From: Phycisphaerae bacterium
GTDB lineage: Bacteria; Planctomycetota; Phycisphaerae; UBA1845
Reading direction: 5' to 3'
Length of the DNA stretch: 64,000 nucleotides
Assembly (NCBI GenBank): GCA_963666835.2
Contig: CAXXGO010000006.1
Location: forward strand, 2,496,001 to 2,560,000
Below, piece after piece: positions 27,596 through 36,720 of this stretch (positions are counted from its first letter, which is position 1; every line of letters begins with the position of its first letter). The notes under the pieces were generated by a model. That model did no database searches, was not told where the DNA came from, and was given only the letters and a program-made list of their open reading frames with translations. The position numbers and the translations under genes are program-made.

Positions 27596-28168
27596 TTAAA
27601 GATCATCCGCCACGTGCCAGTCGACGGCGTCGGTCTCGCACGTGATCGCGGCCACGTGGCTGTTGTGGAAGAAGTGCTCTACGGGCCAGGTCTGCCCTTT
27701 GTATTGCAGGGTCATGCGCGACGAGTTCGTGACCTCGACCAGGCGGCACGCGGAGAGCCCGGCGACCCCGGTTCCATTCGCCTTGAGGACGGCCTCCTTC
27801 GCCGTCCACAGGCGGAAGAAGGTCGGCCAGGATCGCCCCCGCAGCATATCCCATTCTTCCGGGGAAGCGGCGGCATCCATGATGGCTTCGTTACGCCGGG
27901 GGGCGACGTGCTCGATGTCGATGCCCACCGGGCGGTCGGCGATTACCGCGGCCGCCCACAGACGCTTGTGCGTGATTGACCAATACCAGCCGTCTTGCGG
28001 AAGGGGGGCGCCGGCGGCGTTTTTCTTCCAGCCGTTCTGCGGTGCTCCGCAGAGCCGGGCGCATTCTCGCAAGGCCGCGCGCGCGCTGGCCTGTTGTTGT
28101 TTGACTTGGTCAGGGATGCGAGTGCCTTCGCGCTGGGGGATCGGGGTGAGTACCGGGCGCAGGATCAT
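27596..28168 (-). CDS. 4'-phosphopantetheinyl transferase (Sfp-like)
   Basis: [29 protein letters not shown]. Confidence 0.92.
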
Positions 28169-28986
28169 GGCGATTCGGTCGGCCAGATGCCGGCGAGAGT
28201 GTGCTTGACGACGTCGGCGTCGAAGTAGTTCGTCTCCATACCGGCGTCCACCACAATACCCTGGGCATTGATGCCGCTAGATCGCTCGCTCAGCAGAAAC
28301 AACGCCGTGTTGGCCACTTCGTCCGTATCCAATCCGCGCTTGCGCAGCGTGACGTGCTCCGCGTACATGTAGTTGTCGATATACCCGGGGATGCCGGCCG
28401 AGGCGCTGGTCTTGAGCAAGCCCGCCCGCACCCCGTTAAAACGAACCTCGGAGAACCGACTGAACGACTTCGCCAGAAAGGCCAGTGACGAGTCCAACGC
28501 CGCCTTGGCCGGAGCCATATATCCGTAGCTCTCCACGGCCATCCGCGTGGTCGAGATGGAAATGGTCACCACGCTGCCGCGGCGGTCGAGCAGATCTCGA
28601 AAGGCGTTGGCTACGGCAATGAGCGAGTAACAGCTTACCGATACGCATTGCAGGAAATCTTCGCGGCGCACCTCATGGAATTTGCCGGAAAACGATTCGT
28701 AGTTGGCGAACGCGATTGAGTGGACGATGCCGTCGATTTTCTGGTGCTTCCGGCCGACCGCTTCTGCCAAGGCGGCAATCTGTTCGTCCTGCTCGACGTC
28801 GCACACGTGGACCTCGCGGCCGGGCAGCAGCTTGCTTGACTCCTCTCGGCGGGTCTCGTTGCGGACCCCGTATACGACCCTGGCGCCTTCTTCTTCCAAG
28901 AGCCGGGCGACGCGATAGGCCACGCTGCGCTTGTTGGCCACGCCCAATACGAGGTATGTTTTGTCGGTCAGATTAAGATAACTCAC
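28165..28986 (-). CDS. fabI: Enoyl-ACP reductase, FabI-like SDR
   Basis: [25 protein letters not shown] (YxxMxxxK); 4-bp overlaps at both ends. Confidence 0.85.
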
Positions 28987-29429
28987 GCCGACGGTTCCTC
29001 CGCCTCAGCTTGCGTACAAGTGAACGTGACGCGAAGGGCCAACTTATCTTCAACGGTAACCCTGCCCGTGAGAAAGAACGCGTTCTGCAGTTCGTCGTCG
29101 AGCGTCACCTCGACCCGGAGCATCTGCCCGGGACGTACGATCTGCCGAAAGCGGGCGTCGCGAATCCGCGTGAGGACCGGGACCCCGGCCGTGGGATCGT
29201 ATCCGCCGAGTCGATGCGCGATCAGCAGGGCTCCAGCCTGAAAGCAGCACTCGCAGACCAAGACCCCCGGCATCACCGGGTGCCCGGGATAGTGCCCCGT
29301 GAAGAAATCGGCTTTCGGGTCGGCGAGCGTTGTCGTGACGATGCGGTCGTCAGTGACTTCCACGATGTCGTCAACAAAAAGAAACGGAGGGCGGTGGGGG
29401 ATCGAAGAAACGCTTAATATGTCACTCAT
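28983..29429 (-). CDS. fabZ: 3-hydroxyacyl-ACP dehydratase, FabZ-like
   Basis: [30 protein letters not shown]. Confidence 0.88.
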
Positions 29430-33886: not shown

Positions 33887-34042
33887 TTACACCGTGCCTA
33901 GGGAAAACTCCACGCTCCGACGCGACTGCGCACCGTACCATGCTGTAAGGCGGTGGATGTTAGCAGATTCACTAGAAACATGAAACGGAGCAACTTCTCG
34001 GGGGGTTGGTCTTTCCAGTACGATTCTCCCGGGATCCGCCAG

Positions 34043-35032
34043 TCAATCACGTCTCAGCGAACGAATCAGCTTCGCCAAGCCCTCTGATGTCGAAACCCGT
34101 GGCTCATAACCGAAATCAGCCCTGGCCGCGGAAATATTAAAGTAGTGCGAATAGGCAAGCTGGGAGGCAAGGAATCGCGTCATGCGAGGTTCCCTTGATG
34201 GGCAAAATGCCCGGTGGATCAACTCAAACGCTGCTCCTAGGCGCCGGGCTGCGTTGTACGAAATCGTTCGTTCGACCGGCGGAATGCCCAGCTCCGCGAG
34301 GATGCCGTTTAGCCAGGGCCAGAGCTTCACCGGTTCGCCCTGGCTTATGAAGTAAGCCCGGCCCGCGCAAGCTGCTTTGGGGGTCAGAGCGTCCGCCGCC
34401 CGGAGGTGGGCCTCTGCGGCATTATCGATGAAGGTTATGTCGACCAGGTTCTCGCCGTCTCCGACGATTCTAAGTTGGCCCCGGCGGGCGCGATCGATCA
34501 CCCGCGGGATCAAATGAGGGTCGCCGGGACCCCAGATCAGGTGCGGACGAAGGGCGATTGTGCTCAGCGCGGCACTGTTGGCGGCCAGGACCATCCGCTC
34601 GGCCGCAGCTTTCGTTTCCGGATAGTCGGCCAGGTACTGTTGCGGGTAAGGCTGCGACTCGTCCACGCCGCAGAGGGGGCTTTCTCCGAACACGACACTG
34701 GGAGTACTCGTGTGGACTAGCCGGGATACTCCGGCGTTCTTGCACGCATCAATGACGTTTCGCGTGCCGACGACGTTGATGTCTTGGAATATCTTGCGCC
34801 GGCCCCAGATTCCGGGTATGGCGGCCACATGGAAGACCGTTTCCATTCCTTCGCAGGCCTGACGGATTGCCGTGGACTCCCGAATATCGGTTTGGATTGT
34901 CCGTATCCCGGCCTGCTCGTGATGGGGGTACGCCCGTCTCCCCAGCACGGTGACCTCGTCGCCCCGTTCTTTGAGCAGTTGGGCGATACGGCTGCCGAGA
35001 AAACCACCTCCGCCGGTGATCAGGGCCTTCAT
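34043..35032 (-). CDS. OleD-like 3-beta-HSD-family NAD(P)-dependent 2-alkyl-3-oxoacid reductase
   Basis: TGGGGFLG, HTSTPSVV, YPETK, LRPHLIWGPGDPHL, YFISQGEP; ATGA-coupled to the oleC-like gene. Confidence 0.8.
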   Translation of the reverse strand: MKALITGGGGFLGSRIAQLLKERGDEVTVLGRRAYPHHEQAGIRTIQTDIRESTAIRQACEGMETVFHVAAIPGIWGRRKIFQDINVVGTRNVIDACKNAGVSRLVHTSTPSVVFGESPLCGVDESQPYPQQYLADYPETKAAAERMVLAANSAALSTIALRPHLIWGPGDPHLIPRVIDRARRGQLRIVGDGENLVDITFIDNAAEAHLRAADALTPKAACAGRAYFISQGEPVKLWPWLNGILAELGIPPVERTISYNAARRLGAAFELIHRAFCPSREPRMTRFLASQLAYSHYFNISAARADFGYEPRVSTSEGLAKLIRSLRRD

Positions 35033-36720
35033 GGGGCTTGCCTCTCTGCCCAATCCGCAAGTTGCTCGCGGTTGATCTTCGTGTTGTGACGGATGTCCAC
35101 GGGAAGCGAGCGGTGCAAGAGCACTCGGGTGATACTACGCGTCAACTCGTTTCCGCGGGCCAGCTCCAGGAGTTCCTCTTGCAGCTTCCGTCCTCGGCCT
35201 CCCTTGAGATCAGTGGGCGATTTGGGTTCCACCACGATGACCGGGCTCTGTGCTCCGGGCGGTCCGACCCCTACCAGGGCTGATCGGGAAACCTGACGAT
35301 GTTCGTTGAAGATTGCCTCACACGGTACCGTGAACATCGGGCCGTGTGACGTTTGTACTCGATGCCCCTTCCGGCCGCAGAACCAGATTCGCCCCTGTTT
35401 GTCGCGATAACCTAAGTCCCCGATCCGGTGCCAGATTCGTTCGCCGTCGCGGATCTTGGCCAGGGCGGTGGCATTCGGAAGCCCAAAGTACTCTTTGGTT
35501 ACCACGGGGCCTGACACTACGATCTCGCCGATCTCGCCGTCGGGAACAAGTAGGTTACTAGACCATTCGGCGATCGGCTGGTCGGTTACGGTGATCACTC
35601 GCAGGTCGATCTCCGGCATCGTGGTTCCCACACAGGTTCCGGCTCCCGTCCGGGTCTTATCGGTGCAGCCTCCCAGGACCTCTCGACCGCTGATCGACGA
35701 CACTGGGAGGGATTCGGTTGCTCCGTAGGGGGTGTGAACGTCTGCCTCGTCGCGGAGCATGTCGTGAAGCTGCCTGATGACGGGGTACGGCACGGGGGCT
35801 CCGGCAATCAGAATCCGGCGCAGGCTCGGTAGTCTTACGTTGTGATCCGTCCCATAGGCTGCCACCCTCCTCCAAAGTGCAGGGGATCCGAACGTGTTCG
35901 TCACCCGGTGGTCCAGGATCGGCCCGATGATCTTGGCAGGATCAACCTTAGCCGGATGGGCGGGGTCCATGTCCGGGATCACGGTCGTCATGCCCATTGC
36001 GATGCTAAAGAGCCCGAAAAGCGGGAAGGTCGGCAGGTCGGTCTCTCCCGGCTCAATGCCGTAACGCTGCTGAATCTGCCGGACCTGTGCTCCGAACATG
36101 CCGTGCTCGTATACCACACCCTTCGCCGGGCCGGTGCTTCCTGAGGTGAACAGGATCGCGGCCGTCTCATCAGCCGCCGTATCGACCGTGGCGAAATCCG
36201 GGGCGGCGGTCCGAGCGAGTCCTGTCAGAGTCGGACCACCCCAAAACCAGCGACGCCCGACCGTGATTACGCAGCGGACCGATCGAAAGGGACCGGGTCG
36301 AAGCACCCGCATGGCGTGGGCCAAGGGTATCCCGATGAAGCCGTGAAGATCCACCCCGCGGATACACTCCATCATCCGCCCGATGCCCATGCCCGGGTCA
36401 ATCAGCACCGGGACGGCACCCATCTTGAACAGCGCGAAGATCAGCCCCATGAAGTCGATCCCCGGCCGGACCATAACCAGAACCCGCATTCCGCGAGCCA
36501 GCCCGGCCGCGATCATTCCGTTGGCGAACCGGTTCGAGAGAGCCTCGAGTTCGGCGAACGTGATCGACCGGTAGACCGCGCGGCCGTTACCTTCGTACGA
36601 CGACGTCACGACTACGGCGGGGTGATCCGGGACCTTCCGCGCCATTTGAGGAAGGTGCGACGCGATGTTAAACCGCTCCGGCGAATCGTGGGTGCTCGAA
36701 TGATCGGGTGCCGTGGTCAA
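35029..36720 (-). CDS. OleC-like AMP-dependent ligase / beta-lactone synthetase
   Basis: FNIA, PVLIDPGMG, ILFTSGSTGPAKGV, DLPTFPLF, PYGATE, WHRIGD, WFCGRK, PVDIRHNTKI. Confidence 0.85.
   Translation of the reverse strand: MTTAPDHSSTHDSPERFNIASHLPQMARKVPDHPAVVVTSSYEGNGRAVYRSITFAELEALSNRFANGMIAAGLARGMRVLVMVRPGIDFMGLIFALFKMGAVPVLIDPGMGIGRMMECIRGVDLHGFIGIPLAHAMRVLRPGPFRSVRCVITVGRRWFWGGPTLTGLARTAAPDFATVDTAADETAAILFTSGSTGPAKGVVYEHGMFGAQVRQIQQRYGIEPGETDLPTFPLFGLFSIAMGMTTVIPDMDPAHPAKVDPAKIIGPILDHRVTNTFGSPALWRRVAAYGTDHNVRLPSLRRILIAGAPVPYPVIRQLHDMLRDEADVHTPYGATESLPVSSISGREVLGGCTDKTRTGAGTCVGTTMPEIDLRVITVTDQPIAEWSSNLLVPDGEIGEIVVSGPVVTKEYFGLPNATALAKIRDGERIWHRIGDLGYRDKQGRIWFCGRKGHRVQTSHGPMFTVPCEAIFNEHRQVSRSALVGVGPPGAQSPVIVVEPKSPTDLKGGRGRKLQEELLELARGNELTRSITRVLLHRSLPVDIRHNTKINREQLADWAERQAP

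Follow-up and report, generated by a model that had tools for sequence, protein, structure and literature searches.

Which enzymes supply the acyl chains of an Ole pathway in a bacterium without a Pfa synthase? This question is raised by nine genes in a 64,000-nucleotide stretch of a Phycisphaerae genome (assembly GCA_963666835.2, contig CAXXGO010000006.1, positions 2,496,001 to 2,560,000), called the window below. The nine open reading frames (ORFs) lie on the minus strand from 36720 down to 27596, in the order oleC-like, oleD-like, ketosynthase (KS), acyl carrier protein (ACP), two flavoproteins (FAD1 and FAD2), fabZ, fabI and phosphopantetheinyl transferase (PPTase). The ORF listing and family scans confirmed this order, which an earlier note on the same DNA had claimed. 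The four overlaps given there were found in the sequence: 35029-35032 (ATGA, the oleD start on the oleC stop), 29422-29429 (ATGAGTGA), 28983-28986 (GTGA) and 28165-28168 (ATGA). The remaining gaps are 9, 25, 9 and 155 bases.

We propose that the operon replaces a Pfa synthase as the supplier of polyunsaturated acyl-ACP to the Ole enzymes, with a C31:9-type olefin as product. Judged from the sequences, the probability of this reading is roughly 0.55. The cluster is very probably a real, conserved and dedicated supplier to the Ole pathway. The product of the line is probably polyunsaturated, and the odds that the end product is C31:9 itself are slightly better than even. The supplier role is based on the gene content, the kept gene order, an oleA gene with an oleB candidate elsewhere in the genome, the near exclusion with pfaA, and natural flavoprotein-FabZ fusions. 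A literature search that left out most subscription journals found no paper describing the operon or its exclusion with pfa.

Ole partners and absence of Pfa in the genome

The genome (G000) is 6.0 Mb in size and 92% complete, and absences are read against this value. An oleA gene is located on another contig (G000:C1:1420269-1421318) and matched PRK09258 with 439 bits, over the cut-off of 285. Its product has the SNAC, HQV, GNVG and FLEPA motifs, which presumably have catalytic roles. The oleB candidate, an alpha/beta hydrolase gene, directly follows oleA; its top matches are haloalkane-dehalogenase models, under cut-off, and its orthologues (49–58% identity) adjoin oleA in 9 of the 80 related loci described below. 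For the oleC-like and oleD-like genes of the operon, the leading specific matches are the OleC and OleD models, below their lineage-specific cut-offs.

No pfaA was found in this genome, where the best TIGR02813 match reached 124 bits and covered single domains only. There was also no FabA-type dehydratase/isomerase (no TIGR01749 match over cut-off) and no membrane desaturase (PF00487), the control search for the latter being positive in 4 of 14. The lack of pfaA and PF00487 matches agrees with the earlier claim that neither Pfa nor an O2-dependent desaturase stands behind the line.

Co-occurrence with oleA and exclusion with pfaA

In an evenly drawn phylum sample of 301 genomes, a FAD2 orthologue (54% identity or more) was found in 61, oleA in 109 and a pfaA-like match in 62. 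Fifteen further FAD2 matches at 26–29% identity were set aside as paralogues; they occur in family f34, the family of genome G101, which carries anammox Cluster I. All 61 FAD2-bearing genomes have oleA, and in 24 of them it lies within 12 kb of the flavoprotein gene. The 109 oleA genomes comprised 59 with the flavoprotein only, 47 with pfaA only, 2 with both and 1 with neither, four generic polyketide synthase matches being set aside (57/47/4/1 with them). The pfaA-like loci of the two genomes with both systems have other polyketide synthase layouts, and the three ORFs scanned contained no FabA-type domain.

A family sample of 121 genomes, drawn from the family of the Thalassoglobus locus L088 and partly overlapping the phylum sample, gave 100 genomes with the flavoprotein only, 15 with pfaA only, 4 with both and 2 with neither. 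pfaA was present in 4/104 genomes with the flavoprotein versus 15/17 without it. It was also absent in five named carriers (two planctomycetes and one each of Nitrospirae, Chloroflexia and Wallbacteria). A second phylum was sampled with 151 genomes around G306. All 13 flavoprotein genomes had oleA; strong pfaA matches, by a threshold chosen after the scores were seen, occurred in 1/13 carriers versus 14/25 other oleA genomes, with fragments in 2. Kin genomes are not independent, and Fisher tests on these counts were not relied on. The cluster is almost restricted to bacteria with oleA and without pfaA, and it therefore likely represents an oxygen-independent route to polyunsaturated chains for long hydrocarbons.

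Conservation of the gene order

FAD2 relatives are encoded in 554 of 563 candidate stretches of the genome collection, and the best 80 of these were kept for synteny. Many of the 80 loci end at contig ends, and a few gene counts include weak paralogues. The loci contained fabZ (67), FAD1 (66), fabI (59), ACP (49), KS (48), PPTase (37), fabG (29), oleD (25), oleC (21), oleA (15) and oleB (9). The nine-gene order of the window is repeated in 9 of the 80, two with insertions; the window operon lacks the private fabG carried by 29. Eight Nitrospirales loci form one run, oleA-oleB-oleC-oleD-KS-ACP-FAD1-FAD2-fabG-fabZ-fabI, and in six Chloroflexota loci the set is preceded by oleA only.

The synteny check suggested at the outset showed the set kept in records of Phycisphaerae, other Planctomycetota, Nitrospirales, Chloroflexota, Opitutales, Myxococcota and Wallbacteria. 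Among named relatives, Phycisphaerae/Planctomycetota records come closest (73–81% identity), and named orthologues occur in Planctomicrobium piriforme, Thalassoglobus neptunius and Maioricimonas rarisocia. In the Wallbacteria and Myxococcota-type records the locus is free of ole genes; oleA is elsewhere (4/5 full, 1 partial at a contig end). FAD2 stands apart from the other cluster genes in several Planctomycetaceae records, and the cluster can therefore be split. Among the 30 commonest neighbour groups, judged from sequence starts with four proteins checked, no gene for a redox partner, a thioesterase or a radical SAM enzyme was conspicuous, and no ferredoxin or electron transfer flavoprotein gene recurred next to the cluster.

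The Chloroflexota variant with oleA only (L052, L061, L066, L067, L070, L081) is mostly from Dehalococcoidia, and a polyunsaturated ketone is its predicted product. The KS is present twice in L061, and three of the Chloroflexota loci have a CoA-substrate activase gene upstream.

Proposed pathway

Planctomyces maris and Opitutaceae TAV2 are producers of C31:9. In the proposed route to this olefin, the PPTase would prime the dedicated ACP, and housekeeping FabD, FabH and FabG would load it and reduce the keto group; many relatives have their own fabG. The KS would elongate the chain and FabZ would yield 2-trans-enoyl-ACP. FabI would reduce the enoyl group once in three cycles, at C4, C10 and C16. 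In the remaining cycles the flavoproteins would retain the double bond and shift it without oxygen, one setting 3-cis (C6, C12) and the other setting 2-cis or its 4-cis diene equivalent (C8, C14), and would thus take over the jobs of the FabA-type domains in Pfa. OleA would take the predicted 16:4 n-3 type chain directly from the dedicated ACP, and OleA, OleD, OleC and OleB would join such chains into the C31:9-type olefin.

By our own derivation, 16:4 n-3 is built from C2 units in a three-step rhythm: reduce, 3-cis, 2-cis, twice, and then reduce. The C6, C8 and C10 intermediates described in PMC11962503 agree with this rhythm, and the same source reports that Pfa runs via 3-cis and 2-cis intermediates. 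The precursor of C31:9 has been reported as 16:4 n-3 (PMC4882568, PMC6463001), OleA has been found to accept 16:4 from ACP in vivo (PMC6463001), and C31:9 is described as common among planctomycetes (PMC3327967, PMC6995999, PMC7397252).

We tentatively suggest, as a possibility short of even odds, that methylene-interrupted all-cis polyunsaturated acyl chains are made in nature in a third way, next to oxygen-dependent desaturases and the Pfa megasynthase, namely by a dissociated type II fatty acid synthase with two paralogous flavoprotein enoyl-ACP isomerases, one per cis-bond type. The cluster is widespread among planctomycetes and occurs in several other phyla; on this reading, a first function would be assigned to the subfamily that has a distant member in the proposed ladderane cluster. 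Although C31:9 is common in planctomycetes, 100 of the 121 Thalassoglobus-family genomes lack pfaA and have this set, which likely names the missing supplier. If the reading is right, polyunsaturated chains are built without oxygen by small discrete enzymes, which would be more accessible to dissection and engineering than Pfa and would bring a new flavin chemistry to acyl-ACPs.

The two flavoproteins

FAD1 and FAD2 belong to PF01593 and are paralogues with 24% identity. Their best NCBIfam match is the carotenoid isomerase/CrtI family, far under cut-off (TIGR02730, 84 and 108 against 587; TIGR02734, 73 and 86 against 238). Both keep GxGxxG, and each has a conserved histidine in DxxLH. The predicted models (pLDDT 88–89) have the CrtI/amine-oxidase fold. 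The best fold for both is 4rep, with Z 31.1 and 31.6, the latter for FAD1 (pLDDT 89, root mean square deviation 3.5, 435 residues aligned). The fatty-acid double-bond isomerase of P. acnes (2b9w) is in the same fold family (Z 22.5–23.3), and on these models the fold alone does not separate desaturase, isomerase and reductase. A sequence search of solved structures gave weak matches only, and an Atlas look-up returned only automatic 'phytoene dehydrogenase' names.

FAD2 is fused to FabZ in two natural proteins, P0242 (1 contig) and P0394 (3 contigs), and the flavoprotein is therefore tied to the dehydratase step. We favour redox-neutral enoyl isomerase chemistry, at odds a little below even, because there is no FabA-type enzyme, one reductase, exactly two flavoproteins, a fusion to FabZ and no recurring electron carrier.

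The same pathway role could also be filled by oxygen-independent acyl-ACP dehydrogenases, that is, true desaturases adding double bonds to a chain with some unsaturation already; this was proposed in 2009 for the homologues of Desulfotalea psychrophila and of anammox bacteria. The carotenoid desaturases among the best structural neighbours and the retained GxGxxG point in this direction, and so do the isotope values of polyunsaturated hydrocarbons, which are reported to resemble those of monounsaturated acids (PMC2649909). However, it is established chemistry that CrtI-type oxidation makes conjugated and not methylene-interrupted bonds, and oxidation alongside a dedicated FabI would be partly futile. 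The fusion to FabZ and the want of a recurring electron carrier in the neighbour groups also speak against it, and the anammox homologues were reported without CrtI action in E. coli (PMC4790861). We consider these desaturases unlikely.

In P0362 (1009 aa), two more distant members of this flavoprotein superfamily are fused in tandem. A 929-aa ORF of L069 was rejected as a FAD1-FAD2 fusion, its front half being another frame.

Ketosynthase and product of the line

The KS has a polar acyl-pocket signature, T105-E106-H107 and H131-H132-H133-N134-P-R136. T-E-H-G and HHHNPRT stand where E. coli FabF has G107-I108-G109 and P131-F132-F133, and TEHG is kept in 49/49 aligned orthologues (at least 35% identity). 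The cluster FabZ carries His/Glu and not the FabA-type Asp; here we assume that Glu marks the FabZ type and Asp the FabA type.

These pocket residues suit an alternative in which the line feeds Ole another chain, short, conjugated, or partly saturated through RetSat-like flavin reduction, so that the olefin, ketone or beta-lactone formed would not be C31:9. The flavoprotein-associated OleA forms its own lineage in the tree described below, and the oleC-like and oleD-like products score under the curated Ole cut-offs (OleC-specific models, 595/900 and 539/850 bits/cut-off, 1e-178). The Chloroflexota variant with oleA only fits such a product as well, and some relatives bear the automatic name 'retinol 13,14-reductase'. 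Nevertheless, the exclusion with pfaA within one family suggests the same role, and C31:9 is the hydrocarbon described from various planctomycete groups, one genus of Planctomycetaceae among them (PMC3327967); in that family, 100/121 genomes have this system only. Another chain is an improbable outcome, much like the desaturases above.

Several points weigh against the Pfa-substitute proposal itself. The lipid product of the cluster is predicted from its genes, and the closest folds of both flavoproteins are desaturases. The KS has Glu where FabF has I108, which could point to a shorter chain or to another one: I108 is described as a chain-length-limiting pocket position, at which bulky substitution restricts chains to C6-C8 (10.64898/2026.02.26.708327). 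Pfa is reported to need two KS domains to handle three types of substrate (PMC11962503), and the cluster holds one KS. An OleC orthologue was absent from 4/4 Chloroflexota cluster genomes tested. The exclusion is weaker in the second phylum, where 6/13 carriers have a pfaA-like match at E<=1e-160 (1 strong, 5 of the weaker class) and 9/38 oleA genomes have neither system. The exclusion with pfaA fits equal roles without proving equal products. In an OleA tree built from 53 sequences (33 of the flavoprotein type, 19 of the 49 of the pfa type, 1 with neither), the 19 pfa-type sequences all share one clade (support 0.997), separate from the 33. By this tree, the ole and supplier modules travel as units, so that few independent events stand behind the exclusion. 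Such movement as units fits the reported recognition by OleA of its cognate ACP (PMC6463001).

The earlier note had expected an unusual unsaturated chain handed to Ole. The supplier part is supported by the co-occurrence with oleA; the likeliest product is the known C31:9-type olefin and not a new lipid. We infer both the 'unsaturated' character and the flavoprotein chemistry.

The pfa-type OleA homologues of L133, L134 and L135 are approximately 40–55 residues longer than usual.

Housekeeping fatty acid synthase genes

A separate housekeeping run, plsX-fabH-fabD-fabG-acp-fabF, is located at G000:C3:320-325 kb (names from family scans and sequence starts). At E<1e-5, tblastn did not link the cluster ACP to its housekeeping counterpart. 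Apart from the cluster FabI, no enoyl-ACP reductase was recognised in this assembly; FabV was not matched, and the same FabV searches matched no control genome either. A separate FabI of approximately 33% identity is present in 17 of 18 relatives from the same family. The cluster-type FabI is found in 10 of the 18 and absent from 8, and 9 of the 10 hold both types. By sequence comparison, the cluster FabI is a paralogue of the relatives' housekeeping FabI. The 17 relatives with a separate FabI, 9 of them with both, indicate that the housekeeping FabI is probably missing from this assembly and that the cluster is an accessory set.

The description of a stand-alone, non-housekeeping fab set holds, with FabI as the caveat: the cluster has its own KS, ACP, dehydratase, enoyl reductase and PPTase apart from housekeeping copies, but its FabI is the sole one found here. 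That the fab genes are housekeeping copies sitting by chance next to oleCD, as the sole FabI might suggest, is very improbable and largely refuted by the C3 operon, the second FabI of relatives, 8/18 of which lack the cluster type, and the strict co-occurrence of the flavoprotein with oleA.

A further fabZ-ACP-fabZ-KS-KS group, with the second KS broken into pieces, is located at G000:C6:1326185-1330329 (L114), and another KS pair at C6:2324158-2326711.

Comparison with known systems

Pfa synthases with OleABCD, which give C31:9 in Shewanella and Geobacter bemidjiensis (PMC6463001, PMC4882568, PMC3098273), likewise combine Ole homologues with an ACP-based supplier with its own PPTase. For the cluster, a product of this kind is predicted, with the chain passing directly from ACP to OleA. 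In contrast to Pfa, the supplier here is split into separate type II enzymes: one KS, FabZ, FabI and the two flavoproteins. It has no pfaA, tandem ACP, chain length factor (CLF), FabA-type dehydratase or PfaD, and its OleA is outside the pfa-type clade.

D. psychrophila is reported to make C31:8/C31:9 without pfa, and its phytoene-dehydrogenase-like (PDH-like) genes DP2405 and DP2406 are adjacent (PMC2649909). Rattray 2009 proposed an anaerobic type II route to polyunsaturated fatty acids via such genes (PMC2649909). The Desulfotalea type II fatty acid synthase clusters with DP1860, DP2405 and DP2406, compared by description only, have adjacent PF01593 genes as here. The proposal, in the text available (PMC2649909), has no Ole link, invokes radical SAM enzymes and desaturation, and places fabI in an unrelated cluster. 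The Ole link of the flavoprotein set and the exclusion with pfa are additions to that idea, which in the same text had no Ole link or chemistry. The 2009 proposal becomes testable in culturable hosts.

Anammox Cluster I (amxACP, amxFabZ, FabF2/FabFmut, PDH-like, B12 radical SAM; PMC10139942, 10.64898/2026.05.19.726425) shares ACP, FabZ, KS and a PF01593 flavoprotein with the operon, and its flavoprotein homologue keeps the DxxLH histidine of FAD2. The FabZ of its locus L093 matches amxFabZ structures. Identity to L093 is 25–28% for the flavoprotein, 32% for KS and 29% for FabZ, compared with 54–81% for true orthologues. Cluster I has one flavoprotein, a KS/CLF pair and a radical SAM gene, whereas the window operon has two flavoproteins, FabI, PPTase and ole genes. 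No KS/CLF-like FabF pair is in the operon, whose one KS has an intact Cys-His-His, and no B12 radical SAM gene is among the nine ORFs or was seen among recurring neighbours. No family f34 genome is in the oleA list. The ladderane connection raised earlier reduces to distant paralogy (25–29% flavoprotein/FabZ identity), and a reading as an anammox ladderane cluster was rejected on the low identity and the missing CLF and radical SAM. The cluster flavoproteins are tractable relatives of the anammox PDH-like enzyme.

The family f34 genomes G068, G116, G130, G169, G245 and G295 have pfaA-like ORFs (approximately 2750–2900 aa where whole) and no oleA; a secondary lipid synthase in this family may bear on ladderane precursors.

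CrtI/CrtISO and the P. acnes isomerase PAI (2b9w) share the FAD-binding amine-oxidase/CrtI fold with the flavoproteins (Z 22–32). In contrast, identity is 12–22%, scores are far under curated cut-offs, the context is fatty acid synthase and not carotenoid genes, and the substrate here is predicted to be ACP-bound.

Features and neighbours of the operon

Table 1. Genes of the operon, with positions in the window.
Feature	Position	Strand	Basis
oleC-like beta-lactone synthetase, 563 aa	35029..36720	-	PRK09274 712 bits, cut-off 478
oleD-like 2-alkyl-3-oxoalkanoate reductase, 329 aa	34043..35032	-	top NCBIfam match OleD 398/580, 4e-119, under cut-off
Dedicated FabF-type KS, 412 aa	32648..33886	-	FabF model 313/494; Cys-His-His intact
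Dedicated ACP, DSMD motif	32339..32638, probable start 32620	-	family scans
FAD1, CrtI/amine-oxidase fold, conserved DxGxH	30874..32313, probable start 32256	-	PF01593
FAD2, 480 aa, conserved DxSLHG and another conserved 10-residue stretch	29422..30864	-	PF01593
FabZ-type dehydratase, His/Glu pair	28983..29429	-	family scans and residue check
Cluster-specific FabI enoyl-ACP reductase, YxxMxxxK	28165..28986	-	family scans and residue check
Sfp-type PPTase	27596..28168	-	family scans

The GC content of the operon equals that of the genome, and no island is indicated. A promoter and terminator scan gave signals at chance level only, and a plasmid comparison gave no match. An oxidative-stress group (PerR/Fur-like regulator, thiol peroxidase, rubredoxin-like protein, rubrerythrin) at 22947-26195 lies approximately 1.4 kb past the operon end and does not recur next to related clusters. 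A lone KS-like ORF (39152-40333, plus strand) is outside the operon; its N-terminal KS domain alone was recognised, and the usual motif has no cysteine (CLF-like). A dacB/PBP4 gene (36795-38423, plus strand) is divergent from oleC, and the same neighbour is found in 6 related Phycisphaerae-type loci.

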